Assembly: GCA_965237525.1 (NCBI GenBank) | Contig: CBDEFO010000004.1 | Span: 1 to 64,000 of the forward strand | DNA: 64,000 nt | Reading direction: 5' to 3' | From: Candidatus Latescibacterota bacterium | GTDB lineage: Bacteria > Latescibacterota > CBDEFO01 | Shown here: positions 1-36,666 of the stretch, piece after piece | Numbering within the stretch: the stretch's first letter is position 1 | How the letters are laid out: each line of letters opens with the position of its first letter | Program-made: the position numbers and the translations under genes | Notes under the pieces: generated by a model | What the model was told of the DNA's origin: nothing | Seen by the model: the letters and a program-made list of their open reading frames with translations, nothing else | The model's database searches: none

Positions 1-159
1 GATAATTCTTGCGATAAATCACTCATTCAACAGTAGGTTATCATTGTTTCTTAGAAAAATCAAGCAGAACGCTTGACAATTCCAGCGATTTTGCTTACTA
101 TTTGAAGCGTTCTGCTTGTTAATGGCAAGCTTGCAGCTGAACGAGAAAGGAAGTAGCGA

Positions 160-422
160 ATGGAAATGACTGAAAAGAAACCAGATCGACCGAACGGCGG
201 GCATGGGCCTGTCTTTACGTTCTTCGTAGATGGCAAGGAATTCCACGTCGACGAACCAAAAATTACGGCTGGAGAAATCATGGACTTAGCCAGAATTCCT
301 CGTGAGACGGGCCTGGTCCAGATCTTTGAGGACGGAAGCCAGAAGCAGCTATCGCCGACGAGGTGGTTGAACTCAAGTCGAAGGAGCACTTCAAGAAAGC
401 TCCGAGATTCAAGAGGGGTTGA
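160..422 (+). CDS. Ubiquitin-like (multi-ubiquitin/beta-grasp) protein ending in Gly; one frameshift near 352-356
   Basis: The ORF from 160 reads VFTFFVDGKEFHVDEPKITAGEIMDLA. Shifting frame at about 354 gives ADEVVELKSKEHFKKAPRFKRG-TGA (420-422). It precedes E2 and E1 genes. Confidence 0.75.
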
Positions 423-425
423 ACC

Positions 426-808
426 ATGCGAGAACGACGACAGAAGGAAATTCAGCTCGTCAAGGCGGCTCACCCCAAGCTTGAAGTCGGATCGAATCTT
501 GATTGGTTTACCCTGACGAGGCTCGTCTGCCACGAGGGTGGAGCCTGGACGCCACGGATACGCTCATCCTGATTCCGTCCGGATACCCAACAATCCCGCC
601 GGACAATTTCTATGTCGACCCGGCGCTTCGACTAAAGAACGGTCAGCAGCCGGGAGCCAGCAGCGGTCCTGTCGAACAGATCGGACGCCAGTGGCTCCAA
701 TTCTCCTACCACGTCGAAGACTGGCAGCCTCACGGTGATTACCGTCTGGGCCATAACCTCCTCACCTTCCTGGAGGGTGTCCGACATCGCCTTTCGGAGG
801 TCAACTAG
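426..808 (+). CDS. Prokaryotic E2/UBC-fold protein (E2 family E-like); one frameshift near 520-527
   Basis: ATG426 MRERRQKEIQLVKAAHPKLEVGSNLDWFTL joins ORF 503-808 (LPRGWS..LILIPSGYPTIPPDNFYV..WLQFSYH..W). The P-x-G-Y-P-x-x-P-P motif is typical of UBC folds. Confidence 0.75.
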
Positions 809-2197
809 TGGCCACGATCCGCCTTAACCAAGTCCAGTGGAGAACTATCCTGAGCACCTTTACTCGACCCCAGGGGAACACTTCGCGTTCCTGCACGCTA
901 GGTGGACGCTTTCATCCGGACAGCCTGTCTTCATAGTGACCGACATCTCCTTGATTGCAAACAGAGACGTAAGAGTCACCCCTAGCGGATGGGAAGTCGA
1001 GACCAGCGCATTGATCAACATTGTGAACAAGGCCGTGCGGTTAAGGTCAACCTTGATCGAGGCCCACAATCATAGCGGGCGCATGCCCCGACTCTCCGCG
1101 ACCGATCGGAAAGGATTTCAGGACTTTGTACCGTACGTTCTGGACTCGCTGCCTGGGCGACCCTACGGGGTGACTGTCTGGGGCGACGACACCGTCTACG
1201 GAGAATTTTTCTTCGAAGCTGGGAGAACCGGAACCATCGATAGTATTACCGCCGCAGGTGATCACCTTGCTCAGGTTGTGTCCCATAACGAGGATCCGAT
1301 CGATCCGTCTTTCTCCCGCCAAGTTGTTTGGTTTACCGAAGCTGGTCAGCGTCAGCTTGGACGCACAAGAGTCGCTGTAGTCGGCGCTGGCGGAACAGGC
1401 TCGCAGGCGGTTCAGGCACTTGTATTCATGGGTGTGCGGAACTTCCTGGTGATCGACTTCGACCTCGCGGACAGCACCAATATGAATCGCCTCGTGACAG
1501 CCACTGCAGCGGACATTGGGACCCCGAAGGTTATCCTGGCACGCCGTCTTGTCAAGAACGTCGCGCCAGCCTCGCATGTCGATGCACTTCAAGAGAATCT
1601 ACGCTGCCGACAGGCACTCGACAAGCTGAAGGGTGTCGATGTGATATTCGGGTGCGTCGACAACGACGGAGCACGCCTTATCCTGAATGAGTTGGCGCTG
1701 GCCTACCGGATTCCATACTTCGACATCGGAGTCGGGATCAATGCGTCGGACGGCACCGTCTCGGAGGCCGGAAGTCAAGTAGACGCTGTGATTCCTGGCG
1801 GCCGGTGCCTCAACTGCATGGGCTGATCGACCGTGATGAAGCAAGCTATTTTCTTGCACCTCCCGAGGAACAGGAATTTCGCCGAGATCGCGCGATACAT
1901 CGAAGGGATAGATGTACCGACTCCCTCGGTGGTCTCACTCAACGGTACGGCAGTTAACGCGCTGTTACGGAATTTGCTGTCTATGTGTCAGCTCTCCGGC
2001 GCGTGAACTACCGGACGGATCCGGATGCCCTGGGAACCGGTCGCATGTCGGCGCAGTGGACCGTGCCAACACGCGTCCTCAAGAGAGAGGGCTGCATTCA
2101 GTGTGTTGTGGCTGACAAAGGAGATGAAGCCGATATCGAACGGTATATTATTTCTCAGATACCGGAATACCTACAACCACTACAACCAAAGGAGTAA
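808..2197 (+). CDS. JAB/JAMM peptidase - ThiF/E1 adenylating enzyme fusion; several single-base frameshifts (about 850, 1822, 1890, 1960)
   Basis: GTG808 overlaps the E2 stop (TAGTG). JAMM motif GEH..EAHNHS..LSATD; E1 motifs VVGAGGTGS, DFD..STNMNR, GCVDNDGAR; zinc pairs CLNC and CIQC; ends at TAA 2197. Confidence 0.8.
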
Positions 2198-2200
2198 CAG

Positions 2201-2398
2201 ATGGGAGCCAAGCGAGACACGAACAAGTATCATTTCAAGGTCGGAAACACGATCTTTCATAGCGGGATCACGAACAACCTCGATCGTCGCGAACAGGAAC
2301 ATCAGCAGAAATGGCCCGCAGGTCACATCAAAAAAGTCGGCCGCAAAACCACGGAAGAAGCCGCGCGCCTCTGGGAGGAAGGCCAGAAGGAATCCTGA
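2201..2398 (+). CDS. Small GIY-YIG-like protein
   Basis: 65 aa with KYHF..HSGITNNLDRREQEH..EEAARLWE, matching the minimal GIY-YIG core. GGAG RBS upstream; starts 3 nt after the E1 stop. Confidence 0.55.
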   Translation: MGAKRDTNKYHFKVGNTIFHSGITNNLDRREQEHQQKWPAGHIKKVGRKTTEEAARLWEEGQKES

Positions 2399-2430
2399 GG
2401 TGAAAGCCTTCAAAATGAAGGGGGAACGCT

Positions 2431-2775
2431 ATGCCTATGAAGAACCCGCCACACCGCGGCAAGGTGGTGCGTGTGTCCTGTCTGGAGCCGCTCGGTCTCA
2501 ACGTCACCGAAGGGGCGAAAGTCCTGGGCGTCAGTCGCCAGGCACTCTCGAACCTGGTGAATTGCCACACCCGTATTTCAGCCGACATGGCAGTCCGCCT
2601 TGCGAAGGCCTTCGGTTCTACGACGGAGACCTGGATCCGGTTGCAGGCGGCCTACGACGTAGCCCAGGAGCAAGCACGCGAGGATGAGATCAACGTCGAG
2701 CGCTACGAGCCGCAACCAGCAGCCGTAGGGAGCCTGGTGATGGCGGACGACCGAGATGACGGCATCCCCACCTGA
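2431..2775 (+). CDS. higA: HigA-family HTH antitoxin
   Basis: MPMKNPPH.G..LEPLGLNVTEGAKVLGVSRQALSNLVN..ISADMAVRLAKAFGSTTETWIRLQAAYD is a typical HigA sequence. Confidence 0.85.
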   Translation: MPMKNPPHRGKVVRVSCLEPLGLNVTEGAKVLGVSRQALSNLVNCHTRISADMAVRLAKAFGSTTETWIRLQAAYDVAQEQAREDEINVERYEPQPAAVGSLVMADDRDDGIPT

Positions 2776-2969
2776 TAGAGATGTGTCGGAAGAGAGCCGG
2801 CACAATGCCCATGATCTTATGCGGCAACGGGGCGACATGCCTGTAAAATACCAGCCCATTCCAAAAAGCCTGACTGAAGGAACACGGCTGTTGAGATGGT
2901 GACAAGTCAAGATCACACCGCTGCAGCTACGGAGTTGACCCCTCCGAGGGGCACACCGGGTTCACGAAT

Positions 2970-5900
2970 ATGAACAGGGAACAGAACAAGAGCATGAAGC
3001 TGGAAGATCTCCAGACTAAAACTGCGGTGCGCGGCATCCTGTCCGACGGCCTCGTCACGGTTGTCAGCGTGCAGTGGTTCGGCTCCGAAGCGCTTGAGTT
3101 GACGTACAAGACACCGACCGGAGAGGTCGCCAATGAGCTTCTGTACCGTCACGACGAAGCGCGGCTCGAGATCGTCGAAGTAGGCCGGCCATGGAGCTTC
3201 GACGGAGACGGCGCTTTGTTCCGCCTGGTCTCTGAGGCGCAGCGAATCCGCCTTGCGCATCTCTTCGACCCGGTGCTCGCCGTGAACACCTCGGTCGTCG
3301 AGCCTTTGCCCCATCAGATCACCGCGGTCTACGAATCCATGCTGCCCCGTCAGCCCCTTCGGTTTCTTCTCGCCGATGACCCGGGTGCCGGCAAGACCAT
3401 CATGGCTGGGTTGCTCATCAAGGAGTTGATCGCTCGCGGTGATCTGCAGCGGTGTCTGGTCGTCTGTCCCGGTAGTCTCGCGGAGCAATGGCAGGATGAG
3501 CTCTACCGTCGGTTCCAGTTGCCCTTCGACATCCTGACGAACGACAAGCTCGAAGCAGCCCGCACAGGCAACTGGTTCCTGGAAGCCAGTCTCGTCATTG
3601 CCCGGCTGGACAAGCTCTCCCGCAACAAGGACGTTCAGCAGAAGCTGCAAGCTCCGGATTGCCGCTGGGATCTCGTCGTGTGCGACGAGGCCCACAAGAT
3701 GTCGGCGACGTTCTTTGGTGGCGAAGTCAAGTACACGAAGCGCTACCGGCTGGGCAACTGCTGTCGAGTCTCACCCGCCATTTTCTGTTGATGACGGCCA
3801 CTCCGCACAACGGGAAAGAGGAAGACTTTCAGCTCTTCATGGCGCTCATCGACGGGATCGATTCGAGGGGCGCTTTCGCGATGGCGTTCATGTCGCCGAT
3901 GTCTCTGACCTGATGCGCCGCATGGTGAAAGAGAATCTGCTCAAGTTCGACGGCACGCCGCTATTCCCAGAGCGCATTGCGCACACGGTCCCCTACAAGC
4001 TCTCAGAAGCGGAAGCCCACCTTTACAAGGTCGTCACCGATTACGTGCGCGAGGAATTCAACCGTGCGGAGGCACTCGAGAACGACCAGCGAGCCGGCAC
4101 CGTCGGCTTTGCCCTGACGATTCTGCAGCGCCGACTCGCCTCTTCTCTGAGGCCATCTATCAGTCGTTGCGCCGCCGCCGTGAGCGGCTGGAGAGCCGGT
4201 TGCGTGAGCTCGAGGTGCTGCAGCGTGGTGGCCATGCCGCCACCGTATTTGGCGCTGGTCCGGAGCTCGACCCCGAGGATGTCGAGGATCTGGACGAGGC
4301 TCCGAGAACGAAGTCGAGGCGGCCGAGGAGGAAATTCTAGACCGGGCAACGGCGGCGCGATCAATCGCCGAGCTGAAGGCTGAGATCGGGACGCTCAAGA
4401 ATCTGGAAGGTCTTGCGCTTGAAGTGCGGCGAAGCGGCGCGGACACCAAATGGCGAGAGCTGGCAAGCCTGCTCGGTGGAATCTTCACGGCGGGAGGGAC
4501 TTCCGAGCAAATCGCAAAGGCGGACGTTCCCTACGGCGCCGGCGATATTCCCCGACCGACCTCGTCTCCGAAGCAAAAACTGGTCATTTTCACCGAGCAC
4601 CGTGATACGCTGAGTTATCTGCACAGGCGCATCACGACCCTGCTGGGACGTGAGGAGTCGGTTGTTCTGATTCACGGCGGTATGGGCCGCGAGGACCGAC
4701 TCAAGGCCCAAGAAGCCTTCCGCCACGACCCGCACGTGCAGGTGCTGCTCGCCACGGATGCGGCCGGCGAAGGCATCAACCTCCAACGCGCCCACCTGAT
4801 GGTGAATTACGATCTGCCATGGAACCCCAACCGATTGGAGCAGCGGTTCGGTCGGATTCACCGCATCGGCCAGACGGAAGTGTGTCACCTCTGGAACCTC
4901 GTCGCGGATGAAACAAGAGAGGGCGACGTCTATCGCAAGCTCCTCGACAAGCTGGAGCAGGCGCGGGAAACCCTCGGCGGGCAGGTGTTCGATGTGCTCG
5001 GCAAGCTCCCACTTCGAAGGGCGGCCCCTTCGCAAGCTCCTGATCGAGGCAATCCGCTACGGGGAACAACCGGAGGTTCGAGCGCGCCTCACGACGGCGG
5101 TCGATCATGCCCTGGACCGCGTCAGGCTCCAGGACCTGCTGGAAGAGCGCGCCCTCGCGCACGACGCCATGGACGCGAGCAGAGTGTACCGAGTACGTGA
5201 GGAAATGGAGCGGGCCGAAGCCCGCCGTCTACAACCTCACTACATCGAGTCGTTCTTTCAGGCGGCGTTTCAACGCCTGGGCGGTTCAGCCAAGCAGCGT
5301 GAGGCTAGTCGCTACGAGATCACCCACGTTCCCGCACCCGTTCGGAATCGAGATCGATTGATTGGTATTGGAGAACCGGTCCTTCCCCGGTACGAGCGCA
5401 TCGCCTTTGAGAAATCTTTGGTGGCGCCCCAAGGGCAACCGCTGGCGGCGTTTGTGTGTCCCGGGCACCCATTGCTGGATGCGGTCATCGACCTGACGCT
5501 GGAACGACACCGGGATCTCTTGAAACGGGGCGCTGTGTTGGTCGACGAGCGTGACGAGGGCAACAAGCCGCGCGTGCTTTTCTATCTTGAGCACGCGATC
5601 CAAGATGCGAGCCTGACGCGCTCGGGGGATCGTCGGATCATCTCCAAGCGCATGCTGTACGTGGAACTTGATGCGGATGGCGTAACCCGCCATGTGCAGT
5701 ATGCGCCCTATCTCGACTATCGCCCGCTCGCTGACGACGATCCCGGTCTGGAACAAATCCTCGAGCGGCCGCAGTGCGCATGGATCGACCGGGATGTGGA
5801 AAAGAAAGCGCAGGGCTACGCTGTTGCGAACGTGGTCCCGGAGCATTTGACGGAGGTGCGCGAGGCGAAGTTGGCGTTGATCACCAAGACCGAAGTAGCC

Positions 5901-6566
5901 GTAAGGGACCGTCTCACAAAGGAGATCACCTACTGGGATCATCGAGCCGAGCAACTCAAACTGCAAGAGCAGGCGGGCAAGACCGGAGCGAGGCTCAATT
6001 CAGGTGAGGCCCGCAAGCGCGCGGACACGCTGCAAACACGTCTCCAGAAGCGGCTTGAAGAACTCAAGCTCGAGGCGCAAATCTCGCCTCTGCCACCGGT
6101 AGTGCTGGGAGGATTGCTGGTCGTGCCCAAGGGGCTCATCGATGAAATGAGTGGGCGTGAATCGGCGGGCACAAGAACGGCCGTTGATACGCAGGAATCG
6201 GCCGCCCGGGCGCGCAACATCATTATGGAAGTCGAGCGGAGTCTTGGATTTGACCCGACTGACCGGGAGTTCGAGAAACTGGGGTACGACATCGAAAGCC
6301 GCGTGCCGGACACGGGCAAGCTCCGATTCATCGAGGTCAAGGGCCGGGCCGGCGGCGCGTCAACGATCACCGTCACGCGCAACGAGATTCTGTACTCACT
6401 GAACATGCCCGAGGACTTCATCCTCGGGATCGTGGAGTTCCAGGACGCCGACCGACATCAGGTCCACTACGTTCGGGAACCCTTTCAGCGGGAGCCGGAT
6501 TTTGGGGTGACGAGCGTCAACTACGATTTCGCGGAGCTGCTTGCGCGCGCGGAAGAGCCGTCATAA
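2970..6566 (+). CDS. SNF2/RapA-like helicase with C-terminal DUF3883 nuclease-like domain; several frameshifts between about 3755 and 5010
   Basis: [47 protein letters not shown] and C-terminal GYDIES..FIEVKG, spread over consecutive ORFs. Confidence 0.85.
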
Positions 6567-6591
6567 AGGGGTCACCAGAAGACAGGACAGC

Positions 6592-9500
6592 ATGAAGATC
6601 AAGAAGAAGCTGATTGAAGTCGCCTTGCCGCTGGCTGCCATCAACAAGGCCTCGGCCAGGGAAAAGTCCATCCGCCACGGACATCCCAGCACGCTACACC
6701 TCTGGTGGGCGCGTCGACCGCTGGCGGCAGTGCGGGCGGTGATTTTCGCGCAGATGGTGGATGATCCGTCCGGGTATCTGGACGTGCTGCTGTCGGACAC
6801 GAAGAAAAGGAGAGCTGCGGAGCGAGAGCTAAAGAAGCGCCTTGCGGCACATGCGGCGAAGCGGTCATTGGCCCGCGACGATGCGATCGCCGAACCTGAG
6901 CCGACGCTGGCAGAGGTCATCGCCGAGCAGGAGCGTGACCGGCTATTCGCGATTATCGAAGAGTTGGTCCTTTGGGAGAACACCACGAACGAAGAGGTGC
7001 TCGAACCGGCGCGGCGGGAGATCTGGCAGAGCTGGCGGCGGGCGTGCGCCGAAAATGCGGCCCATCCGAGAGCCGCGGAGATGTTCGATCGGCACACGCT
7101 CCCGGCTTTTCACGATCCATTTGCCGGGGGTGGAGCGCTCCCGCTGGAGGCGCAGCGGCTGGGGCTGGAAGCCCATGCCAGCGACCTGAACCCGGTGGCG
7201 GTGTTGATCAACAAGGCCATGATCGAGATCCCGCCGAAGTTTGCCGGGCAGGCGCCGGTCAATCCGGCGACCCGCCAGGAAAAGAGCCTGATCGAGCGCG
7301 AATGGAAGGGTGCCCATGGACTGGCCGAAGACGTCCGCTACTACGGCCAATGGATGCGCGACCAGGCCGAGAAGCGCATCGGGCACCTGTATCCGAAGGT
7401 CGAGGTTTCCGAGGAGATGGTGGCGGAGCGGTCCGACTTGGAACGCTACAAGGGCCGCGCGCTGACGGTGATTGCCTGGCTGTGGGCGCGGACGGTGAAG
7501 AGCCCCAACCCCGCCTTTGCCGATGTCGAGGTGCCGCTGGCGTCCACCTTCATGCTGTCAACCAAAAAGGGCAAAGAAGCGTACGTCGAGCCGGTGATCG
7601 AGGGCCGGGGGTACCGATTCACGGTGAAGGCCGGGAAGCCCAAAGATGCGGAGGCGGCAAAGCGGGGCACCAAGGCGGGAGGTAGCGGCAGTATCTTCCT
7701 CTGCCTGATGTCGGGAACGCCCATGCCGTTCGAGTACCTGCGACCCGAAGCCAAGGCAGGACGTATGGGTGCGCGCCTCATGGCCATCGTCGCGGAGGGC
7801 GACCGAGGCCGAGTCTATCTTGCGCCGAACTCAGAGCATGAAGCGGCGGCGCGCAAGGCAAAGCCGCATGACGTGCCGGATACGGATCTGCCTGCGAAGG
7901 CGCTCGGTTTTCGTGTGCAGGAATACGGCATGATCAAATGGCGCGACCTCTTCACTCCCCGCCAACTCGTGGCGCTGACGACTTTCTCCGACCTGGTGGG
8001 TGAGGCGCGTGCGCGGGTGGAGCATGACGCCATCGTTGCTGGCCTCCCCGACGACAGCACGCCTCTGCGCGATGGCGGCGCCGGCGCCAAAGCCTATGCC
8101 GAGGCGGTGGGGGTGTATTTGGGATTGGCTGTCGATAAAGTTGCGGACTATTGGTCGTCGATCTGCATTTGGAATGTGTCTCGCGAAACAATAAGCCATA
8201 CGTTCGGTCGCCAAGCGATACCCATGACGTGGGACTACGCTGAAGGGAACGTTTTCTCCAACTCAACTGGGAATTTCGCGTCACTGCTGGAGTGGATCGA
8301 GAAATTCCTGGTGGAGGCGCCCGCCACGGGGTACGGAAGCAGTTCGCAGATGGATGCCTCATCGCAGGACTGCACTCAACACAAGGTTGTCTCCACCGAT
8401 CCTCCTTACTACGACAACATCGGCTACGCCGACCTGTCGGATTTCTTCTACGTCTGGTTGCGCCGCTCTCTCCGTCCAGTCTTTCCCGACCCCTTCGCCA
8501 CAGTCGCGGTGCCCAAGACTGATGAGCTGGTGGCTGCGCCTTACCGCCACGGCGGCAAGGCCGCGGCGGAGACCTTCTTCCTCGACGGCATGACCCTGGC
8601 GCTACACCGGCTCGCGGAGCAAGCACATCCAGGGTTCCCGGTCACCATCTACTACGCCTTCAAGCAGTCGGAAACAAAAGAAGACGCCGGAACAGCTAGC
8701 ACTGGCTGGGAGACGTTCCTAGACGCTGTGATCCGGTCCGGTTTCGCGATCACCGGCACGTGGCCGATGCGCACCGAGCGGCCAACAGGCGTAAAGGTCG
8801 CCGTCAACGCGCTTGCCTCCAGCATCGTCCTGGTCTGCCGCCCCCGTCCCGCCGACGCGCCGACCGCCACGCGGCGCGAGTTCCTGACCGCCGCGCTCCG
8901 CTCTGAGCTGCCAAAGGCGCTACGTCTGCTGCAAACAGGCAACATCGCGCCCGTCGACCTTGCCCAGGCGGCCATCGGTCCCGGCATGGCCATATACACC
9001 CGCTACGCCAAGGTGCTGGACGCCGAAGGCAAGCCCCTGTCCGTACGCGAAGCGCTGGAGCTGATCACCAAACTCTCGATGAAACGCTGGTCCAACAGGA
9101 AGGCGACTTCGATTCAGACAGCCGCTGGGCCGTCGCCTGGTTCGAGCAGCACGGCTTCGATGAGGGCGAATACGGCATCGCCGAAACACTCTCCAAGGCC
9201 AAGAACACCAGCGTTGCGGGCATGGTAGAGGCGGGGATTTTGACCTCAAGAGCGGGGAAGGTCCGACTGCTGCGGCCCGAGGAACTGCCTGCCGACTGGG
9301 ACCCGACGACCGACCCGAGGCTGACCGCTTGGGAGATGGTTCATCATCTCGTACGAGCGCTGGAAACCGGCGGCGAAAGCGCCGCGTCCGAACTTGCTGC
9401 CCAGCTCGGCACCAAGGCCGAGGCGGCTCGCGAGTTGTGCTACCGCCTGTACACGCTATGCGAGCGCAAGAAACGCGCGGCGGAGGCGCTCTCCTACAAC

Positions 9501-9599
9501 AGCCTGGTGCAGAGCTGGCCCGAGATCACTCGCCTGGCGCGAGAAGATCAGAAGGCCGAAGCTGAACAGACTACCCTGTTTGAGGGTGGGGAGAACTGA
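6592..9599 (+). CDS. DUF1156-family adenine DNA methyltransferase; one frameshift near 9067
   Basis: [38 protein letters not shown] shift at about 9067 restores [20 protein letters not shown] and joins ORF 9222-9599. Confidence 0.85.
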
Positions 9600-9601
9600 A
9601 T

Positions 9602-10978
9602 ATGACATGCGAAGAAGTTGCCGCCACGCAATGGAGTCGCCACAAGGTAAGAGCTGGCTCCTATGAGTTCGACGAATCCGGAGTGCTAGATGAAGACGGG
9701 GTCAATCAGCACCGGGAGCGTATTGAGCCGTGGCTTGCGGCACTGCTTCAGGCAGAGCATCTCAATCTCCTGGTTGGGGGCGGCCTAACAACTGCAATTG
9801 CTCATCACACGTGCGTACCCGCAATTGATATGTCCGTGGACGGATTGGAGGGTGAATATAGCGAAGCCGTCCTGGCGGCAGCGGCCAAGAGTGCGAAAGT
9901 GAGCGGTCGCGAGAAACCAAACATCGAAGATGCAATTCGTGCGGCGCGTGAGTTGATCCAAGGTCTTGCGGTGTTTTCGACTGAGGAGAAGGGTGATGAT
10001 GATTTTGTCAAGAAGGCCAGGTCCCTGCATGAAGTCTGGGCCAAGGCGTTGGAGAGGAAGCTCGTGTCGTTCCTTGGCCAGGTGTTGGAGACCGAGGCCG
10101 GGATACGCTCGATGGTTGAGGGAAACACCGCGGCCGCGCAAAGGGCGCGACGCCTCCTTGGATCTTTCCTACTGACCTTCGCCAGCCGTACTGCGACGAG
10201 AGAGAGACTACATATCTTCACTACAAACTACGATCGTCTAGTCGAATTTGGATCAGATCTCCTTGGGTTGAGGGTAATCGATCGATTCGTCGGGGAACTC
10301 GAGCCTGTGTTCCGCGCTTCCCGTCTTGGGATAGACATGCACTACAACCCGCCTGGCATCCGCGGGGAGCCCAGATACCTTGAGGGTGTGGTTCGTCTGA
10401 CAAAGCTTCATGGGTCTATCGACTGGTGCCAAGTCGGTGAAGCAGGACAGAACGACCGAATAGTGCGTAAGGCGCTTCCGTTTGGTGCTGCACAAGACCA
10501 TTCGGAAGTGCCCAAGGGTGCAACTGACGGACTCATGATCTACCCGAATCCGGCGAAAGATGTCGAAACACTTGAATACCCCTATGCGGAATTGTTCCGG
10601 GATTTCGCAGCGGCCGTCTGCCAGCCGAACGCGGTTCTTGTGACATACGGATATGGATTCGGTGACGACCACATCAATCGGATCCTGCGGGATATGCTGA
10701 CGATCCCGTCGACACACCTAGCCATCCTCTCATTTGACGACGCAGGAGGAAGGATTCCCGGATTCTGCGACCGCGTTGGACGCGACGAACAAACCACGCT
10801 TCTCATCGGCCCACACTTCGGCAACCTCGCTAGGCTTGTCGATCACTATCTGCCTAAACCGGCGATTGACCGTACGACCTGGAGGATGGTGGAGCTTCTT
10901 AATAGGCGATCTCCGCGAGGGTCATTAGAAGGTACGGATGACGCGCAACCTGCTACACCGGGGGAAGCACTCATATGA
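9602..10978 (+). CDS. SIR2-like (SIR2_2) NADase-family protein
   Basis: LLVGGGL, FTTNYDRLVE, KLHGSIDW and YGYGFGDDHIN motifs. Confidence 0.85.
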   Translation: MTCEEVAATQWSRHKVRAGSYEFDESGVLDEDGVNQHRERIEPWLAALLQAEHLNLLVGGGLTTAIAHHTCVPAIDMSVDGLEGEYSEAVLAAAAKSAKVSGREKPNIEDAIRAARELIQGLAVFSTEEKGDDDFVKKARSLHEVWAKALERKLVSFLGQVLETEAGIRSMVEGNTAAAQRARRLLGSFLLTFASRTATRERLHIFTTNYDRLVEFGSDLLGLRVIDRFVGELEPVFRASRLGIDMHYNPPGIRGEPRYLEGVVRLTKLHGSIDWCQVGEAGQNDRIVRKALPFGAAQDHSEVPKGATDGLMIYPNPAKDVETLEYPYAELFRDFAAAVCQPNAVLVTYGYGFGDDHINRILRDMLTIPSTHLAILSFDDAGGRIPGFCDRVGRDEQTTLLIGPHFGNLARLVDHYLPKPAIDRTTWRMVELLNRRSPRGSLEGTDDAQPATPGEALI

Positions 10979-13110
10979 GACCACTCGTCGAGGCCCTGGG
11001 AGATCGCGCCGTCGGCGTTGTGGAGAGCGTTAACGCGAACGCCATTAGCGTGCTCGTAGACCCTTCCGCGCCACAAGCCACTGCTTTGAACACGGGGACA
11101 CCAACGGGTTTTCCAAGAATCAACGGGTACCTATTGGTTCCCAACGAATCGGGCGCGACTGTTGGCGTGATCACCTCGGTGCGCGTCGAGCGACTGCCAT
11201 ATCCGAAACGAAAGGGGATGCAGGACTTCGGTCTCATTGATTTGCCGTTCCCAGCGCGGCTAGTCACTCTGATGCCGCTCGGTACGCTTATTTCAAAGCG
11301 TCGAAGCGAGTCGGACGACCTGGGATTCAAAGTGCGAAGGGGTGTTGATGTTTTTCCATCGGTAGGCGACCCCGTGTTACTTCCGACAGACGTCCAGCTA
11401 CGCGCACTGGTTGAGGGTGAGAGCGGCGATGTCGGTGGACGTATCCAGATTGGAGTATGCCCGACAGCTGGCGGCGAGCCCGTCCACGTCGATCCGGACA
11501 AGCTATTCGGCCGGCACCTAGCCGTGCTAGGCAATACCGGGGCGGGAAAATCCTGTACGGTAGCAGGATTGGTTCGATGGTCGCTCGAAGCCGCACGAGA
11601 GGCACGTAAGAACGTCGATCCGAATGCCAGATTCATCATTCTGGACCCCAATGGTGAGTATGCTCGGGCATTCAGCGATCTTGATCCGCGTGTGTTTCAG
11701 GTGGAGAGCAGTGGCTCCGCAAGGCCACTCAAGGTACCGGCGTGGCTGTGGAATGGAGAAGAATGGTCGGCGTTTACCGGCGCTGCGCCGGGGGTGCAAC
11801 GACCGATCCTGTTTGACGCGTTGCGGCGATTGCGATCAGGGAAAATGGATGCGGACGTCGCTGAAGCTAGAGTAAGGCGCCGACTGCGGAACTACCGTAT
11901 TCGCCTGCGGATGATCCTAGACCAGGGAACGTACATGGGGTTTCCGGGCCGCAAGGATTGCGCAGTGGTATTAACAAATCTTGTCGGGGCATTCGAGGAG
12001 TTAGTGCAAGGCGGACTCGAAGGCGAATTGCAGGACCACCTGAAAACGGCAATCGAACACGCACAGGATGCGGAGCTCGCTGCACGTTCTTATGTTGATA
12101 AGCACGAACAACAACAATACAGCGATTTCGCTGATGCTCACATCGAGCGCATTCTGCATGCAGTCAAAGCTGCGGCCACTGCAGCAGGAATTCCTGACGA
12201 TCAACAAGGCATCAGCGAAGACACGCCGGTCTTTTTCCCGGTTACTGATTTGCCAGGGCTCGTAGAAGTCATTGCCGCCGACGCATCAGGTCGAGATGTT
12301 TCCCAGTTCGTCGATTCGCTCAATCTTAGAATTCGCAGCATTTTCTCCGCTGGTCCGCTCGAATCAGTCGTGAACCCAGAAGGTTCGGCTGCGTTGACGC
12401 TTGATGCCTGGCTCACGGATTACGTTGGCGGCGACCAAGCTTCAAATGGTCCGCTAGCTGTGCTGGACCTCTCGCTCGTCCCGTCCGAGGCCGTACATGT
12501 TGTAGTGGCCGTGCTAGCACGCATGGTCTTTGAGGCGGTTCAACGCTACAGAAGATTATCGGGATCGGAACTTCCCACGGTGTTGGTACTCGATGAAGCG
12601 CACACCTTCGTGCATCGAGATCTCACATCGGAGGGTGCATCACCTGCCGGTAGGACGTGCGGTCGCACGTTTGAGCGGATTGCCCGTGAGGGAAGAAAAT
12701 TCGGACTCGGATTGGTATTGGCGTCTCAACGTCCCTCGGAAATATCACCGACCGTTCTATCGCAGTGCAACACTTTCCTGTTACACCGCATCGTCAACGA
12801 TCGAGACCAAGACTTGGTGAAACGGCTCGTGCCGGATGGATTGGGTGATCTCCTTCGCGAACTGCCTAGTCTCCCTTCTAGACGGGCTATTCTTCTCGGC
12901 TGGGGAGCGCCGGCACCGCTTCTTGTGGAGGTGCGGGAGCTCCAGGATGCCCACCGCCCGCATTCGCCAGATCCGGCTTTTTGGGATGTCTGGACTGGGA
13001 CCAAAGAATGCGGAATTGACTGGTCAAAGATTTCTAAGCTCTGGGGTTCATCTCCTGAACCAGAGGGTGCAATACCAAACCCTGAAGCCCCTCACGAGAC
13101 TCAGGAGTAG
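10975..13110 (+). CDS. HerA/FtsK-family ATPase, partner of Sir2
   Basis: N-terminal barrel region, RHLAVLGNTGAGKS, LVLDEAH, RIAREGRKFG, SQRPSE. ATGA overlap with sir2. Confidence 0.9.
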   Translation: MRPLVEALGDRAVGVVESVNANAISVLVDPSAPQATALNTGTPTGFPRINGYLLVPNESGATVGVITSVRVERLPYPKRKGMQDFGLIDLPFPARLVTLMPLGTLISKRRSESDDLGFKVRRGVDVFPSVGDPVLLPTDVQLRALVEGESGDVGGRIQIGVCPTAGGEPVHVDPDKLFGRHLAVLGNTGAGKSCTVAGLVRWSLEAAREARKNVDPNARFIILDPNGEYARAFSDLDPRVFQVESSGSARPLKVPAWLWNGEEWSAFTGAAPGVQRPILFDALRRLRSGKMDADVAEARVRRRLRNYRIRLRMILDQGTYMGFPGRKDCAVVLTNLVGAFEELVQGGLEGELQDHLKTAIEHAQDAELAARSYVDKHEQQQYSDFADAHIERILHAVKAAATAAGIPDDQQGISEDTPVFFPVTDLPGLVEVIAADASGRDVSQFVDSLNLRIRSIFSAGPLESVVNPEGSAALTLDAWLTDYVGGDQASNGPLAVLDLSLVPSEAVHVVVAVLARMVFEAVQRYRRLSGSELPTVLVLDEAHTFVHRDLTSEGASPAGRTCGRTFERIAREGRKFGLGLVLASQRPSEISPTVLSQCNTFLLHRIVNDRDQDLVKRLVPDGLGDLLRELPSLPSRRAILLGWGAPAPLLVEVRELQDAHRPHSPDPAFWDVWTGTKECGIDWSKISKLWGSSPEPEGAIPNPEAPHETQE

Positions 13111-13113
13111 CGT

Positions 13114-16100
13114 ATGGCGATAACGAACCACGAACGGGTCGGCAAGGCGCTCGATCTGCTCAAAGCGGGTCTGGGGCCGTTTGTCGAACGCGAGGTCAAG
13201 GGCGCCCTGGAGTCGCGAAAATTGGACGCCCATCAGTTGCGTGGCTACGGGGAAGATCGCGTGTTGGGGAACAAGCCTGTCCCCGAGCAGGACGTGGCCG
13301 GGCTGCTCAAGCTGATGTGGGACACCTGGCACGACGTCTTTCGAGAGATTCTGGGACCGGCGGAGCGGAGTCTGGTCAGCGAGTTGCGCGGCCACCGCAA
13401 CAAGTGGGCGCACCAGGAGAGTTTTTCCAGCGATGACGCCTATCGCGCTCTGGATTCGGTGGGCCGGCTCCTTGCTGCGGTATCCGCGCCGCAGTCAGAA
13501 GAGCTCGAGAAGCGCAAGCTGGAGTTGCTGCGGGTGCGCTTCGATGAACAGACGCGGGGGGAGCGCCGCAAGCAGGCGGGAACGGCGATTGAAAGCGTTG
13601 CCGCGGCCAGCCTGAAGCCGTGGCGGGAAATCGTCACCCCCCACAGGGACGTCGCGAGCGGGCGATACCAACAAGCCGAGTTCGCCGCCGATCTCTGGCA
13701 GGTGCACCTGGGTGAAGGGACAGATGAGTATCGAGACCCCGTCGAGTTCTTTCGGCGAACGTATCTGACGGAAAGCCTGAAGGGACTGTTGGTTGGGGCC
13801 GTCCACCGTCTCCAAGGCAAAGGAGGTGATCCCGTCGTTCAGCTCCAGACGAACTTCGGCGGCGGCAAGACCCACTCCATGCTTGCCCTGTATCACCTGT
13901 TTTCCGGGACAGCCTCCGGGGAACTGGACGGGATCGACCCCGTTTTGCAGGAGGCGGAGGCAACGGAGCTTGCGCCGGTGCGCCGAGTTGTATTGGTTGG
14001 AAACAAGATCTCCCCGGGGAACCCAGTCACCAAACCGGATGGCACGGTCGTCCGAACACTCTGGGGCGAGCTGGCATGGCAACTGGGCGGCAAGAAGGCG
14101 TTCGCGCGGGTTGCGGCCGACGACGAAAAGGCGACGAGTCCAGGCGATGCACTGCGGGAACTCTTCAATGAATATGGTCCCTGCCTGGTCCTCATCGATG
14201 AGTGGGTTGGCTACGCCCGCCAGCTGCATGATCAGAGCGATCTCCCCGCCGGAGGCTTCGAAACCCAGTTCAGTTTTGCCCAGGTGCTCACGGAATCGGC
14301 CAAACTCGCCAACAACTGCCTGCTCGTGATCAGCTTGCCGGCCTCGGACACGGCCGGCCCCCCACACACCCAGGCTGATGATGTCGAGGTCGGTGGGCAA
14401 CGCGGGCGGGAGGCACTCGATCGGCTGCGGAACGTCGTCGGGCGCATCGAATCGTCCTGGCGTCCGGCCAGTGCCGAGGAAAGCTTCGAGATAGTGCGGC
14501 GACGCCTTTTCGAGCCGTTCACAGATCCTGTCCAATTCAGGGATAGGGATGTGGTCGCCCGCGCATTTGCCGAGTTCTATCGGACACAGCATCAAGAGTT
14601 CCCGCCTGAGTGTCGGGACGCGGACTACGAGAAGCGGATCAAGGCGGCCTATCCGATACACCCCGAGATCTTCGATCGCCTGTACACGGATTGGTCGACG
14701 CTGGTGAAATTCCAGCGCACGCGTGGCGTGTTGCGGTTGATGGCGGCTGTGATTCACAGCCTGTGGGAGAAAGACGACAGGAATCCGCTGATTCTGCCGG
14801 CGAACATCGCGATCGACGATCCACGCGTACAGTTCGAGCTGACCCGGTATCTCCCCGACAACTGGGTGCCGGTGATCGAGAAAGACGTGGACGGGCCCCG
14901 CTCGCTGCCGCGACGGATTGACAGCGCGGTTCCGAACCTCGGAAAGCTCCACGCGTCCAGACGCGTCGCGCGAGCGATTTATCTCGGATCCGCACCCACC
15001 GCCGATGCGGCGCATCGGGGTCTTGAGGACCGTCGCGTCAAACTCGGCTGTGTCATGCCGGGGGAGTCTCCGGCGGTCTTCGGCGATGCGCTGCGGCGAC
15101 TGGCCGGTGCGGCAACGTACCTCTACCAGGATGGTCCTCGTTACTGGTACTCCACACAGCCAACCGTCACGAAACTGGCGGAGGATCGTGCCGAGCAGTT
15201 GAAGCGCAACCTCGACAAGGGGGTGCAGGAGCTCGGTGCGCGACTCCGATCGGATCTCCGCGACGACACGGGCGACTTCACTCGCGTGCATCCTCTCCCG
15301 CAGTCCCGGCAGGATGTTCCGGATGATCTCGATGCACGACTCGTGGTGCTCGGAACCGACACGCCCTACAGCAAAGAGAAGGGAAATCCCGCAGAGACCG
15401 CGGCGCAAGCCATCCTGGAATCGAGGGGTAGCTCGCCGAGGATTTGTCGCAACACACTCGTGTTTCTGGCCGCGGACAAGACGAGGCTGCAGGATCTCGA
15501 TGAGGCGGTCCGGTGGTACCTGGCATGGGAATCGATACTCGGTGAGCGGGAACAGCTCGACCTTTCGCCTCACCAGGTCAAGCAGGCTGAAATCCAAAAG
15601 GAGGCCGCGTCCGGCACAGTTACGGCTCGGCTCCCGGAGACGTACCGGTGGCTCCTGGTTCCGGTTCAGACCCGTCCCGACGCTTCGATGGAGTGGCAGG
15701 CCATGAGGTTGTCGGGACAGCATTCGCTCGCAGCCAGGGCGAGCAAGAAGCTGAAAGGCGATGAGCTGCTGGTGACCGGCTTCGCCGCCACTCGACTACG
15801 GATGGAGCTTGATCGCGTGCCTCTCTGGCGCGGCGACCACGTGTCGATCAAACAAATCGTCGAGGATTTTGCACGATATCTCTATCTGCCACGTGTCAGC
15901 GACTCGACGGTCCTGCTGAACGCAATCCGCGACGGCATCGCCCTTCTTACCTGGGAGCAGGATGCATATGCGTTCGCGGACAGCTTTGACGATGAGGCAA
16001 AGCGATATCGGGGATTACGTGGTGGGCAAGTCGTTTCATTACTGGATACCGATGCTCCTGAATTGCTCGTCAAGGCGGATATTGCGCGTCAACAGCTCGA

Positions 16101-16461
16101 TGCCGAGAGTGCACCCCCGGCTGGCGGTGGAGAAGGCGCCGAAGCAGGGACGGGTGGAAAGATCACGGTTGCCGGCGGAAGACTGAGTCCCGGGGAGGTT
16201 CCGTCGGGCACGCCGACGCCGACGCAACCCACGCGGTTTCATGGGACCGTTGCGCTTGATTCCACGCGGGTAGGACGCGATGCGAGCAGGATTGCGGATG
16301 AGGTGATCTCGCATCTTTCCGGCCTAGTGGGAGCTAAGGTTACAGTGACTCTCGAAATAGAAGCTGAGGTGCCGTCGGGTGCCCCGGATCACGTCGTTCG
16401 CACGGTCACGGAGAACAGCCGGACACTGAAGTTCACGAGTCAGGGCTTTGAAAAAGCATAG
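13114..16461 (+). CDS. Swt1-like HEPN + DUF499 AAA+ ATPase
   Basis: N-terminal RNKWAH (Rx4H), LKPWREIVTPHRDV, LQTNFGGGKTH, LIDEW and FQRTRGVLR. Confidence 0.85.
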   Translation: MAITNHERVGKALDLLKAGLGPFVEREVKGALESRKLDAHQLRGYGEDRVLGNKPVPEQDVAGLLKLMWDTWHDVFREILGPAERSLVSELRGHRNKWAHQESFSSDDAYRALDSVGRLLAAVSAPQSEELEKRKLELLRVRFDEQTRGERRKQAGTAIESVAAASLKPWREIVTPHRDVASGRYQQAEFAADLWQVHLGEGTDEYRDPVEFFRRTYLTESLKGLLVGAVHRLQGKGGDPVVQLQTNFGGGKTHSMLALYHLFSGTASGELDGIDPVLQEAEATELAPVRRVVLVGNKISPGNPVTKPDGTVVRTLWGELAWQLGGKKAFARVAADDEKATSPGDALRELFNEYGPCLVLIDEWVGYARQLHDQSDLPAGGFETQFSFAQVLTESAKLANNCLLVISLPASDTAGPPHTQADDVEVGGQRGREALDRLRNVVGRIESSWRPASAEESFEIVRRRLFEPFTDPVQFRDRDVVARAFAEFYRTQHQEFPPECRDADYEKRIKAAYPIHPEIFDRLYTDWSTLVKFQRTRGVLRLMAAVIHSLWEKDDRNPLILPANIAIDDPRVQFELTRYLPDNWVPVIEKDVDGPRSLPRRIDSAVPNLGKLHASRRVARAIYLGSAPTADAAHRGLEDRRVKLGCVMPGESPAVFGDALRRLAGAATYLYQDGPRYWYSTQPTVTKLAEDRAEQLKRNLDKGVQELGARLRSDLRDDTGDFTRVHPLPQSRQDVPDDLDARLVVLGTDTPYSKEKGNPAETAAQAILESRGSSPRICRNTLVFLAADKTRLQDLDEAVRWYLAWESILGEREQLDLSPHQVKQAEIQKEAASGTVTARLPETYRWLLVPVQTRPDASMEWQAMRLSGQHSLAARASKKLKGDELLVTGFAATRLRMELDRVPLWRGDHVSIKQIVEDFARYLYLPRVSDSTVLLNAIRDGIALLTWEQDAYAFADSFDDEAKRYRGLRGGQVVSLLDTDAPELLVKADIARQQLDAESAPPAGGGEGAEAGTGGKITVAGGRLSPGEVPSGTPTPTQPTRFHGTVALDSTRVGRDASRIADEVISHLSGLVGAKVTVTLEIEAEVPSGAPDHVVRTVTENSRTLKFTSQGFEKA

Positions 16462-16849
16462 TCGGCGATCTCCCCCTATACCCCTCAAAACCATCCTGAT
16501 TTTTGCGCGAAGGTGACAGGTTGTAGTTCGAAAAGAACATGGCGATGATCACGAACTTCCCAGAAAACACAATCCTTCGTGTCACAAGAGCCAACGGTAT
16601 CGACGATGCGGCGATATGCTCATGAAATGAAACCCGTCGTCAGCGAGATCGAGACCGAGCGATTCGCTGTGACATGCGGCAGGGTGTTGAGCAGTGCGGA
16701 AATGGATTCCGAGCCCCAGTTTGCAAAGGGTGATCGGCAGGGTGATTAAACGTTTGGATATGCAATATAACTGTAATTTATTCAGTTATTTATTAGGGAT
16801 AATCTAGAGGCCAGGAAATCCTCGCAGTCCCTACAGAACGAAAAATTCC

Positions 16850-17371: not shown

Positions 17372-17425
17372 ATCAAGAAGTAAAAACATCGGCGTCTAAT
17401 AAGCTCTAAATAGGGAGAACGCATA

Positions 17426-18613
17426 GTGGCTGCTGCCGGTTTTCCTGCGTCCACACAGATAATTAAGATCCTCCTCATCCTGGCGGCTATTTCACTTGTT
17501 GTATGGTTCTTGATAGCCATCAAGGGCATACTGTTCCCGTTTGCACTGGCCTTTCTTATTGCCTATCTATTCAATCCTGTGGTCAACAGACTCGAAGGAT
17601 TAGGCATAGGGCGCGGATGGGCTACCTTGATAATCTACTTGGTGCTCGCTCTATTGGCAGTCTTGATTATGATATTTGTCGCACCTCTGCTTGCCAGCGA
17701 AATAAAGGGACTGACGGGGAATATATTGCCGGCTCTTCTGGCCGCCACAGAAAGCGCGCACGCAGATTCGCTTGAGACAACCAGGAGCGCTGCTTCAGAT
17801 ACGGTGGGCGCTGCGCTTTCTGAATATGCACACGAACTTATCGGGAAGTTACAAACTCAGATAGAATCGCGGCTACCGCGCTTTATGTCTGATCTTATCC
17901 CGGGATTTAAGGCTGAGAGCATCACAGATCAGATAAGCCAATATTCGGAGGACATATTTAAGAACGTAGGGGAACTGCTTGCACAGCTCTTAGGAAGATC
18001 GGTGTCTTTGGTAGTCAACCTCTTCTCCTTAATATTCTTCCTGATAATAGCTCCTGTGGTGGCGTTCTTTGTGCTGAAAGAGGCCCCAACTGCCAAGGCA
18101 AGCTTCGTTGAACTCGTACCTAACAGGTACTTTGAGATGATTTTGAACCTCATTTACAGGATAGATAAGCAGATAGGCGGATACATAAGGGGTCAACTTA
18201 CGGTCTCTATTACCATAGCTTTACTGTGGACGACTGCGCTCCGGATAATAGGATTGAAGTACTATCTTGTCATAGGGGTGGCTGCCGGAGTCTTAAATCT
18301 CATTCCGTATCTTGGCCCTATAACTACAGCCTCGATAGTGATTATCGTCTCTTTGATTCAAAAGGGGATCGGAGGTTTCGTTCCGGCTGCGTTGACATTT
18401 GCGGTGATCCAGACTCTCGATGGAGTCTTCATCTCTCCGGTTGTGGTGGCAAGGAGCGTCAATCTGCATCCTGTGGTCGTGCTCTTTGTAGTCCTGGCCG
18501 GGAGTCAACTGCTCGGAATCATAGGTATGATCCTTGCTGTCCCTATAACGGGGATTATCAAGGTGACTGTCCAGACGCTCTACGAAGGCTTTAAGAGCTA
18601 CTCCGTGAGCTGA
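17426..18613 (+). CDS. AI-2E family transporter
   Basis: PFALAFLIAYLFNPVVNRLE, GGYIRGQL, NLIPYLGP and LHPVVVL..GMILAVP. Confidence 0.9.
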   Translation: MAAAGFPASTQIIKILLILAAISLVVWFLIAIKGILFPFALAFLIAYLFNPVVNRLEGLGIGRGWATLIIYLVLALLAVLIMIFVAPLLASEIKGLTGNILPALLAATESAHADSLETTRSAASDTVGAALSEYAHELIGKLQTQIESRLPRFMSDLIPGFKAESITDQISQYSEDIFKNVGELLAQLLGRSVSLVVNLFSLIFFLIIAPVVAFFVLKEAPTAKASFVELVPNRYFEMILNLIYRIDKQIGGYIRGQLTVSITIALLWTTALRIIGLKYYLVIGVAAGVLNLIPYLGPITTASIVIIVSLIQKGIGGFVPAALTFAVIQTLDGVFISPVVVARSVNLHPVVVLFVVLAGSQLLGIIGMILAVPITGIIKVTVQTLYEGFKSYSVS

Positions 18614-24522: not shown

Positions 24523-25182
24523 CTAACGAAAACGTTGCCGCGAAGGGGTTTTCGGACGTCCTGTGGAGCGCGGTGGTTTGACCATCACCAAAGAATGTGG
24601 GTATTTCATCTTCCACTTTTCCCAGGTCGTGCGCTCTGAAGGGATATCTTTTAAGCAGACTCTTTTCAAAGGGCCGGCAATAGCAACGCCCTTTTGAGTC
24701 CATAAGCTGAAAGTGTTGCGGTCATACATAACCAAAGCGCTATTGCGCAGTATTCCTGACACTCCGAAGGTAAAACTGGTGTCCCTGATCCCACGACTTC
24801 GGGCGATCTCGCGGTCTATTTCGGGGATATGCACGATATCCTTTGCCACGATGGGTCACCATGTCACAGCGATTGGGTCCGAGCCGAGCGAATCGTTGAC
24901 TACTTCGCGGCCATCCAGAAATTTGATCGGATAAGCTTTGGCGATGCCTCTGAGATGTACCCCAATTACTCCGTCAGCGGGATTCAGAAAGCTTTCGGCT
25001 TCCTCGACGCTCACGAATTGCGGGTTACTGATAGCCGCAATAGAGTCAGAAGTTCTGGTGCGGATGGCCTTCCGTACGGATTCTAATTCATTATCTCCCC
25101 GGCCCTCTTGCGCAGAGATCCCTGTAGCACCCAAAAGCGACAGGGTTATGCTCGTAAGGGACAGCAGATTGACAACTCTCAT
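24523..25182 (-). CDS. DUF3179-family protein, probable selenoprotein (in-frame UGA at 24856-24858)
   Basis: Signal peptide, then AKAYP..EVVND..IAVTW-UGA-PIV..FGVSGILRNSALVMYDRNTFSLWTQ..TTWEKWK..P in one frame. A hairpin follows the UGA. Confidence 0.75.
24825..24841 (-). promoter_or_regulatory. Candidate bacterial SECIS hairpin
   Basis: On the minus strand, GGAUAU-CGUGC-AUAUCC begins 14 nt after the UGA, with G at loop position 2. Confidence 0.5.
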
Positions 25183-35136: not shown

Positions 35137-35147
35137 TTCAGACCTAA

Positions 35148-36666
35148 AAGCCTTGTGAAAAACCCTTAGATTCAGAAAGTAGTATAGAACAAGCATTGAT
35201 AAAGCAGTTCCGATGTATTATATTATGTTATTGATAATATTATACATGGAGGAAACAATGACCCCACAAAAGCAGGAACAGACAAATCCGATGTTTCACT
35301 ATTTTCAGATGGAGGATTTAGTTCCCGAGGATCATATCCTTCGTCAGATTGATGAGGCAGTTGATTTTTCATTTGTACGAGACGTTGTATCAGATTGTTA
35401 TTGCCCTGACAATGGCAGACCCGGTATTGATCCTGAATTAGTTGTTCGAATGATCCTTATTGGCTATCTGTATAATTTGAGTGAGAATCGGCTCTGTCAG
35501 GAAGTGGGGATGCATGCGGCATATCGGTTGTTTTGTCATCAGACATTTGATGATGCGGTTCCGGATAGGAGCACGATCAACAAGCTTCGCAATCACAAGT
35601 GGGCATCCAGTGGGTTGTTTGAACGGATAATGCGTCAGGTAGTCCAGTGTTGCATAGATGTCGGTGTTGTGAGCGGTAAACACCTTAGTGTCGACGGCAC
35701 TCAGATACAAGCTGATGCTTCAGTGAAAAGTATTGAGCCGATAGAACCCCCTGTTTCTCTTGATGATTATCTCAAGGGAATCGGTTTTGAAGGTGATAAG
35801 ACAAAGGGTAGGTCCGGGCATCCTCAGGATAAAGACTTTCATGGTGAAAAGTGGACGAACCAAACACACCGTTCGACTACAGACCCCGACGCGCGCTTAT
35901 ACAGCAAATCGAAGGGCAAAGGGGCTTTTCTCTCGTTTATGGGCCATGATCTGATCGACACAAAAAGCAGAGTAATCCTTGAGACTCAGGGCACGCAGGC
36001 GACAGGGACAGCAGAGCCCGAAAGTGCCCTTAAGATGGTAGATGACCTTGAAACATACACCATGCCCAAAGACATTCAGACACTTAGTGCCGATACCGGT
36101 TACGGTTCTGGTAATTTTATCGCTGATGTACTTGACCGGGGAATCATACCCCATATTCCTCTGCGAGCCGATGAGAAGATTGAACCGATTCCTACATGGA
36201 AAAACAAGACAAATTCAGCACATATTCAGGCCGAACGGGATAGAAAAGTGCGAGAGGCGAAAGCCAGAAATCATGCACGGTCTATCTCATTAACAGCTGA
36301 CTACAAACTCTCCCGGAGACTCCGTAAACGCAGTGAACATATCTTTGCTGAAGCCAGGCAACAACACGGTATGGGACGAGCCCGTTATAGAGGACCAGCC
36401 TCACTGAATGAACAGTTGAATCTTGTTGCAACAGTACAGAATCTCAAGAGGCTTGTATCTTTCATAAGAAGGGGGAAAGCGTCTATGTGTGCCCTGTCTG
36501 TCAAAGACAGTGCATCCTGTTCTTCAAACAGCTCCTATTCCTTGCTGACCAGAACTCTGATAAGACTATTTTGCTTATTCCACAGCAAAACGATACGATA
36601 TGCTACTCTTTGACCCATAATCGGCGCTTCAGACGCTGCCTGGGACATAACTATTTCACAAGGCTT
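35148..36666 (+). mobile_element. IS1182-family IS, copy 1 (transposase 35213-36613), flanked by CTAA duplication
   Basis: Terminal IR AAGCCTTGTGAAA; transposase motifs LVPEDHILR..GRPGIDP..VDGT..TTDPDA..ADTGY..EHIFAE. Confidence 0.9.

Follow-up and report, generated by a model that had tools for sequence, protein, structure and literature searches.

Near one end of a 64-kb stretch of DNA from a Candidatus Latescibacterota bacterium (positions 1 to 64,000 of contig CBDEFO010000004.1, hereafter the window), an Hma defence operon carries a Sir2-HerA cassette between its second and third genes. On balance this quite probably represents two independent defences, lying on an integrated island and read from a single transcript. 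The five genes hmaA, hmaB, sir2, herA and hmaC all lie on the + strand within 2970-16461 (open reading frames (ORFs) and Pfam). The inserted pair is tightly packed: the hmaB stop at 9599 is separated by 2 nucleotides (nt) from sir2 at 9602, sir2 and herA overlap by 4 nt, and 3 nt separate herA from hmaC at 13114. A preliminary description of this DNA had reported one strand-coherent unit with gaps of 2, -4 and 3 nt around the inserted pair; re-measurement gave the same values, with the domains above Pfam cut-offs. Hma and Sir2-HerA likely share one transcript. Base composition sets the insert apart, since the GC content at third codon positions (GC3) is 58% in sir2 and 56% in herA, against 71-77% in the hma genes, which points to a foreign origin of the insert. 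Two further copies are important below: one on C8, a second contig of the same assembly, and one in locus L011, from a metagenome-assembled genome (MAG) of Pseudomonadales, in another phylum, where the order is hmaA-hmaB-sir2-herA-Schlafen-hmaC. Other loci, genomes and public sequencing runs are labeled L, G and X.

Defence genes were identified with PADLOC models and with Pfam matches above cut-offs. Four pieces of hmaA match successive parts of the HmaA model PDLC00659 (E = 5e-122, 7e-49, 2e-89 and 4e-182), hmaB matches the HmaB model PDLC00660 (E = 0 and 5e-43) and hmaC the HmaC model PDLC00662 (E = 0). The three genes are co-oriented and each has its own Hma model as top PADLOC match, so that the gene content is that of Hma; the BREX-related core announced earlier is thus borne out. 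HmaA contains the helicase motifs GAGKT and DEAH and the nuclease motif GYDIES..IEVKG. HmaB contains FAGGG and DPPY, and is a predicted N6-adenine methylase. HmaC contains GGGKT and LIDE, and its HEPN_Swt1 domain covers residues 11-124 (Pfam, E = 2.6e-33). The RNKWAH motif, already pointed out in the HEPN domain, was found at residue 95 (nt 13396), and R[NH]xWAH is present in 10 HmaC relatives and in the C8 copy. The operon also has the HEPN-fused DUF499, the DUF1156 methylase and the SNF2 helicase with C-terminal nuclease that define Type-1 BR; no match to a PLD/HKD nuclease or to DUF3780 was obtained in the ORFs scanned (Pfam/PADLOC). BREX proper (types 1-6) was rejected, as PglZ, BrxC (DUF6079), BrxA and BrxB are absent among the operon ORFs (Pfam, PADLOC).

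The cluster had been presented as little characterised: its relationship to BREX holds, but it has already been named Hma, from 1638 instances (PMC8565338), and HmaA has been tested, protecting against T4 in a manner that requires its nuclease (PMC11232893). Insertions are found in 66.5% of Hma loci (PMC11232893), and another survey reports embedded genes in 931 of 1485 Hma systems (62.7%), 96.7% of these genes being co-oriented (10.1101/2024.01.29.577857). The latter study, introducing 'guilt-by-embedding', describes known and candidate systems placed co-oriented between hma genes, as here, and proposes both a backup and a genomic-sink explanation; the available main text does not name Sir2-HerA, which the figures or supplements may list. 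The window shares with published Hma systems the hmaA-hmaB-hmaC order, the SNF2 plus NOV_C, DUF1156 and DUF499 domains, in-operon insertions and an integrase-bearing island. It differs in the DPPY amino-methylase motif of its HmaB, the type first suggested having been m5C, and in its cargo. Among the 1079 hmaA neighbourhoods of Table S7 in PMC11232893, seven hold an adjacent SIR2_2 and DUF87 pair: in Syntrophorhabdus it separates hmaA from hmaB, in three cases it comes immediately behind hmaC, in two it is upstream of hmaA, and one is unplaced. None is at the hmaB-hmaC junction in the rows checked. Type-1 BR (PMC12839542) is alike in its tripartite core, its HEPN-DUF499 (a common fusion, in 1370 of 2446 taxa), its helicase with a C-terminal PD-(D/E)xK domain and its in-locus backup effectors. 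However, those effectors are nucleases, and the main text uses none of the words 'Sir2', 'sirtuin' and 'NAD'.

The Sir2-HerA pair proved to be complete, as proposed. The genes adjoin, one encoding a SIR2_2 and the other a DUF87 protein, and they match the PADLOC models SIR2 (PDLC04079, E = 1e-168) and HerA (PDLC04098, E = 1.5e-264). The best match of Sir2 in the Protein Data Bank (PDB) is the E. coli Nezha Sir2 (8j4u_A, E = 9e-19). Its catalytic residues N209, D211 and H270, equivalent to N163/D165/H212, are intact and unchanged in 137 of 137 relatives; the GSG loop reads GGG in the window protein, as in 3 of the 137. HerA has Walker A GNTGAGKS and Walker B LDEAH, and the Walker motifs are invariant in all 101 aligned proteins. 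Known Sir2-HerA or Nezha systems (8J4U; Paenibacillus 8WLD, PMC11472057; E. coli types I-III, PMC13434337) are alike in adjoining genes, HerA Walker motifs and fold. In contrast, the window pair is distant from the solved structures (17-22% HerA identity), and its helical-bundle insert is about 50 residues longer than that of 8WIV, as measured from alignment anchors, and is exchanged between close relatives. Complex formation, NAD+ depletion and abortive infection are established for homologues (PMC11472057, PMC13434337). By analogy, complex formation, ATP gating and NAD+ depletion are predicted for the window pair, and nuclease-dependent defence is predicted for its HmaA.

Table 1. Position of the operon genes and associated features in the window
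Feature	Position	Strand	Description
HigA-like HTH_3 gene	2431..2775	+	same island, upstream of hmaA; Pfam HTH_3, E = 2.7e-9
hmaA	2970..6566	+	SNF2, Helicase_C, C-terminal NOV_C/DUF3883 (PD-(D/E)xK nuclease); 5 single-base frameshifts
hmaB	6592..9599	+	DUF1156 amino-methyltransferase; 1 frameshift near 9067
sir2	9602..10978	+	458-aa SIR2_2 protein, predicted NADase
herA	10975..13110	+	711-aa HerA ATPase, DUF87
HerA helical domain, exchangeable, residues 290-414	11842..12216	+	identity drop relative to the C8 twin, approximately unbiased (AU) tests
hmaC	13114..16461	+	Swt1-like HEPN fused to DUF499 AAA+ ATPase
Right attachment-site core, 13 bp	16809..16821		left copy on C8 near 25076-25088, one base different

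Comparison with homologous loci bears out the earlier suggestion that the site between methylase and DUF499 is a swappable slot; a hotspot of this kind in Hma is already in print. Nineteen regions around HmaC relatives were compared: 14 contain hmaB and hmaC, four contain a distant HmaC without hmaB match, and one is too short. The hmaB-hmaC joint is empty in six of the 14 (gap of 7-73 nt), and carries inserts of 0.7-4.7 kb in the other eight, with Sir2-HerA in none of these eight. The inserts that could be named are HEC-01, MNT-HepT, Ppl with Schlafen, TIR-APAZ/short Argonaute with AbiE, and DUF4325; three had no assignment. The joint is also empty in runs X4 and X6, where hmaB and hmaC are 36-39 nt apart. 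On C8, a Ppl gene (904 aa) and a Schlafen gene of AlbA_2-HATPase type (427 aa) stand between hmaA and hmaB, and the same Schlafen family lies between herA and hmaC in L011. Cargo is exchanged at both internal hma junctions, and the hma genes may act as conserved recombination arms that allow cassettes and variable domains to be swapped.

One Hma locus of the same phylum (L212:10978-15625, in genome G024) is loaded at both junctions, with TIR-APAZ/short Argonaute and AbiE between hmaB and hmaC and Ppl and Schlafen between hmaA and hmaB; its TIR-APAZ/short Argonaute is another predicted NAD-depleting system at the hmaB-hmaC slot. The Ppl-Schlafen cassette is present at about 97-99% identity to C8 in an abundant organism of runs X1, X2, X4 and X19 (L091:9000-13400). 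This suggests a recent exchange across hosts, and the X19 metatranscriptome includes the cassette.

The surroundings of Sir2-HerA itself were compared in 158 related loci, some being duplicates: 80 were the top-ranking of 234 genomic Sir2 matches, and 78 came from the 80 top-ranking of 235 metagenomic HerA matches. Both genes are present in 152 of them, 86 of these with 3 kb or more to either side. Only in L011 do hmaB and hmaC enclose the pair; in L057, L059, L070, L076 and L118, hma genes adjoin in other or cut-off arrangements, and two more loci have distant hma matches only. Because members of this clade hardly ever lie within Hma, the slot is either vacant or filled with unrelated cassettes, and the empty joint exists, we regard Sir2-HerA as a passenger, likely self-sufficient. 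We found no evidence of functional coupling to Hma in the loci compared, and the proposal of one layered system is unsupported on the same grounds.

Could Sir2-HerA nevertheless guard its host operon? It would then monitor Hma, or DNA-mimic inhibitors directed against it, and fire once Hma had been put out of action, in the manner of PrrC with EcoprrI. We consider this improbable. The idea of a suicide backup guarding the core, raised for this locus before, is already in print (10.1101/2024.01.29.577857; PMC12839542), the former discussing precedents, and Gp5.9 as a trigger of Sir2-HerA (PMC13434337) would suit it, as do the tight spacing on either side of sir2-herA and the hmaB-sir2-herA order, which recurs in L011 and L118. 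The genes found upstream are also compatible, 22 of the 56 scanned being methylases (15) or other restriction or BREX genes (7), next to 19 others and 15 without hit at 1e-10. This share is inflated, as the 56 were drawn from 100 candidates and are mostly the longer ones (L011 hmaB was left out). The host systems, however, are mutually unrelated (N6_N4 methylases, Eco57I-like, type III Res, HsdS, GmrSD, BrxC), which makes a dedicated contact with one of them unlikely; moreover, the position of the cassette relative to the hma genes varies, and the slot accepts many cassettes. An indirect form of guarding, in which anti-restriction proteins are sensed, is untouched by these points: the bias towards DNA-modification genes fits hitch-hiking at hot spots, but is predicted by an indirect guard role as well.

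Separately, in L014, L018, L026, L052, L124, L128 and L131 a related Sir2-HerA pair lies directly behind an N6_N4 methylase of about 930-1060 aa, with an SNF2 gene coming next in several of these loci, a nesting in a different methylase-helicase system.

We favor the reading of two independent defences on one island. HmaA would nick phage DNA with its helicase-nuclease, HmaB would mark self DNA at a motif that may differ between variants, and HmaC would scan, its HEPN domain possibly serving as a further last-resort RNase. Sir2-HerA would assemble, sense infection, drain NAD+ and kill the infected cell. Embedding may supply the cassette with a promoter and co-transfer, and the benefit of such a backup may come from covering different phages, with no molecular link to Hma. 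Several observations weigh against this reading. Promoter-like sites number 0 against 3.4 expected in a scan of the locus, and the placement of the cassette is non-random, as the upstream genes attest. The closest solved HerA is just 22% identical, and the self-marking role of HmaB is unproven: in the single test in print, phage from a host overexpressing HmaB infected no differently (PMC11232893). The same scan, uninformative as a whole, gave 12 terminator-like sites against 11.1 expected. The RNA runs say nothing on co-transcription here, because they were searched as contigs, only 5-9% of words are shared, and the X19 contigs matched hma, Ppl and Schlafen genes of other organisms.

A divergent part of the cassette lies within HerA. 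Between window and C8, Sir2 is 96% identical. In HerA the identity is 94% for residues 1-289 and 491-690 and only 26% for residues 290-414, and the DNA identity of herA falls to 41-53% over about 11875-12275. The window segment is nearer to L011 (70%) than to its C8 twin (26%), the opposite of what is seen in the flanks (84% versus 94%), so that fast evolution alone was rejected as an explanation. The C8 segment is nearest to L116, L114, L115 and L021 (55-57%), and these four are 27-28% identical to the window segment. In trees of segment and flanks, each with 27 sequences, the segment groups the window with L011 (100/98); grouping window with C8 is rejected (AU test, p = 0.003), as is a window, C8 and L011 group (p = 0.0001). 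The flanks group window, C8 and L011 (SH-like approximate likelihood ratio test, SH-aLRT, 89) in no resolved order (AU p = 0.48), and a placement of C8 in the clade to which most of the nearest relatives of its segment belong is rejected (AU p = 6e-5). These p values are optimistic, because the groups were named after the identities had been seen; and since the flank tree gives no order for window, C8 and L011, the question of which copy is ancestral rests on wider clades. A similar pattern is found across the family: the segment falls into 44 types among 128 distinct HerA proteins, of 15 clusters whose flanks are 90% alike or more, 6 contain at least two segment types, and 14% of the 73 pairs with flanks 95-100% alike are less than 40% alike in the segment. 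Together, these comparisons support an exchange of HerA residues 290-414 by recombination.

An alignment-based model of HerA (pLDDT, the predicted local distance difference test score, 77; predicted template modelling score, pTM, 0.70) was used, the single-sequence fold (pLDDT 36.6) being set aside. It is closest to the SIR2/HerA complex 8WLD (E = 1.8e-30, 22% identity), and shows residues 290-414 as four helices and a hairpin (pLDDT 80-94). Alignment anchors (287 to 262, 417 to 336) place the segment within residues 228-396 of Paenibacillus HerA, an alpha-helix bundle; in that protein, a beta-barrel binds Sir2, and the helix bundle is separate from the barrel (PMC11472057). Triggers of Sir2-HerA are named for one subtype, and the passages available give no binding site (PMC13434337). 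As the domain is both variable and exchanged, we tentatively suggest that it could be a specificity module, choosing the phage protein or DNA structure that triggers NAD+ destruction, much as a restriction enzyme's target-recognition domain is swapped between conserved flanks. No report of an exchangeable HerA domain was found in the literature searched, which missed most subscription papers.

The C8 copy helps to delimit the island. Window position 1 lies inside it, and C8 ends in the same island from the opposite side; C8:20557-1 (reverse strand) and window 1-15584 align in five blocks, which are 81-98% identical. The same genus has a one-contig genome, G001, in which the flanks of C8 and of the window abut through a single 13-bp core, which represents the empty site, and no HmaC match was found in this genome. 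No tRNA was found in the window, nor any Rfam family at the attachment site. Upstream, C8 also encodes an integrase, a predicted pPIWI-associated nuclease, capP and capH. The two copies differ further at the 3' end of hmaA (75-91% DNA identity over 6301-6566), and in patches of HmaB (48-75% DNA identity over 7640-9000), which differ among window, C8 and L011 and suggest that the variants have different methylation motifs. Run X1 holds both HerA variants, and among the contigs listed, five exact X4 contigs all match C8. Window and C8 are rather likely alleles of co-occurring strains, not a tandem pair. It is conceivable, though we hold it with some reserve, that methylase patches, cargo genes and HerA domain have been reshuffled together, which would make window and C8 a natural matched pair. 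The second variant, with its extra cargo, methylase patches and HerA exchange, was not found in print.

An assembly artefact has to be considered, in which the nesting would result from joining reads of different organisms. The locus starts a contig and overlaps the end of another at 81-98% identity, and related runs are rich in hma genes from many organisms, which would fit such a chimera. But the nesting recurs on C8, and L011, from another phylum, has the order hmaA-hmaB-sir2-herA-(Schlafen)-hmaC unbroken. In addition, an X4 contig spans the hmaB-sir2 junction with zero differences to C8, and X1 contigs match both HerA variants exactly (window 11791-12813; C8 3366-3733). The locus is not a chimera, the probability left to that explanation being minute, which disposes of a refuting condition named earlier.

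A different concern is the state of the host genes. The frameshifts in helicase and methylase had been overlooked: hmaA is not a single ORF in the assembly, with single-base frameshifts near 3754, 3856, 4147, 4301 and 5009, and hmaB is broken once. Only sir2, herA and hmaC are free of frameshifts; in L011, hmaA and hmaB are intact as well. Taken at face value, the operon would be decaying, with Sir2-HerA and HmaC alone still working. The restriction of the frameshifts to hmaA and hmaB would fit this, as would the fact that the short-read contigs restoring the bases mostly belong to other organisms. Still, 12 single-base indels fall within the first 9.1 kb of the contig, mostly in short runs and also affecting the upstream ubiquitin-like genes, and none that breaks a frame falls within 9.1-16.5 kb. 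The C8 twin encodes an intact HmaA of 1197 aa; its five breaks lie elsewhere, and four of them are no more than 750 nt from the tip of that contig. Compared with short-read contigs of relatives, taken from four public runs, the window shows one-base differences at about 3751, 3853, 4146, 4301 and 5008, and C8 differs from them at its four tip indels. Over 705-2223, short-read contigs nearly identical to the window have 3-4 gaps relative to it. Beyond 16.8 kb, the 2334 nt of host DNA directly past the island align without gap to a same-genus genome. Because of this clustering at the tips, the intactness of C8 where the window is broken, the one-base differences of short-read contigs and the gap-free host DNA, we judge the frameshifts to be, most likely, assembly or sequencing errors at the contig tip; a truly decaying host appears very improbable.

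Other features of the island and contig deserve mention. A ubiquitin-like operon at 160-2210 comprises a Multi_ubiq-like ubiquitin-like protein (Ubl), a Prok-E2_E gene and a ThiF/E1 gene, with six likely error indels; the last gene has a probable N-terminal JAB peptidase, read from the sequence without family match, and on C8 a divergent capH-capP pair lies upstream. Before the HigA-like gene, a putative antitoxin gene, C8 carries a 745-nt insert with gene fragments (17396-18141), the end of which reads, we presume, like a HigB toxin; forms with and without the insert are both present in public runs. The ubiquitin-like operon is similar to Type I Bub (PMC11601596), but Ubl and E2 are separate genes and no DUF6527 gene was seen. 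Further along, a 1.53-kb repeat with a 466-aa ORF has three copies in the window (35145-36671, 39014-40539 and 42037-43559), and 134 copies at 98% identity or more in the 4.58-Mb assembly, an unusually large expansion of what is probably an insertion sequence. A distant second SNF2 helicase gene lies on the same contig (C4:184688-186348), 36-37% identical to the HmaA pieces.

Nesting within Hma is ordinary and published; the pair of HerA variants is the part that could matter. Nearly the same operon is found without cargo, with one load and with two, which suits it to the question of hitch-hiking versus guarding. For the way in which Sir2-HerA recognizes infection, C8 and window offer a ready-made swap comparison: one domain has been exchanged, whereas Sir2, the barrel that binds it and the ATPase core are nearly constant, which points to where specificity may lie.

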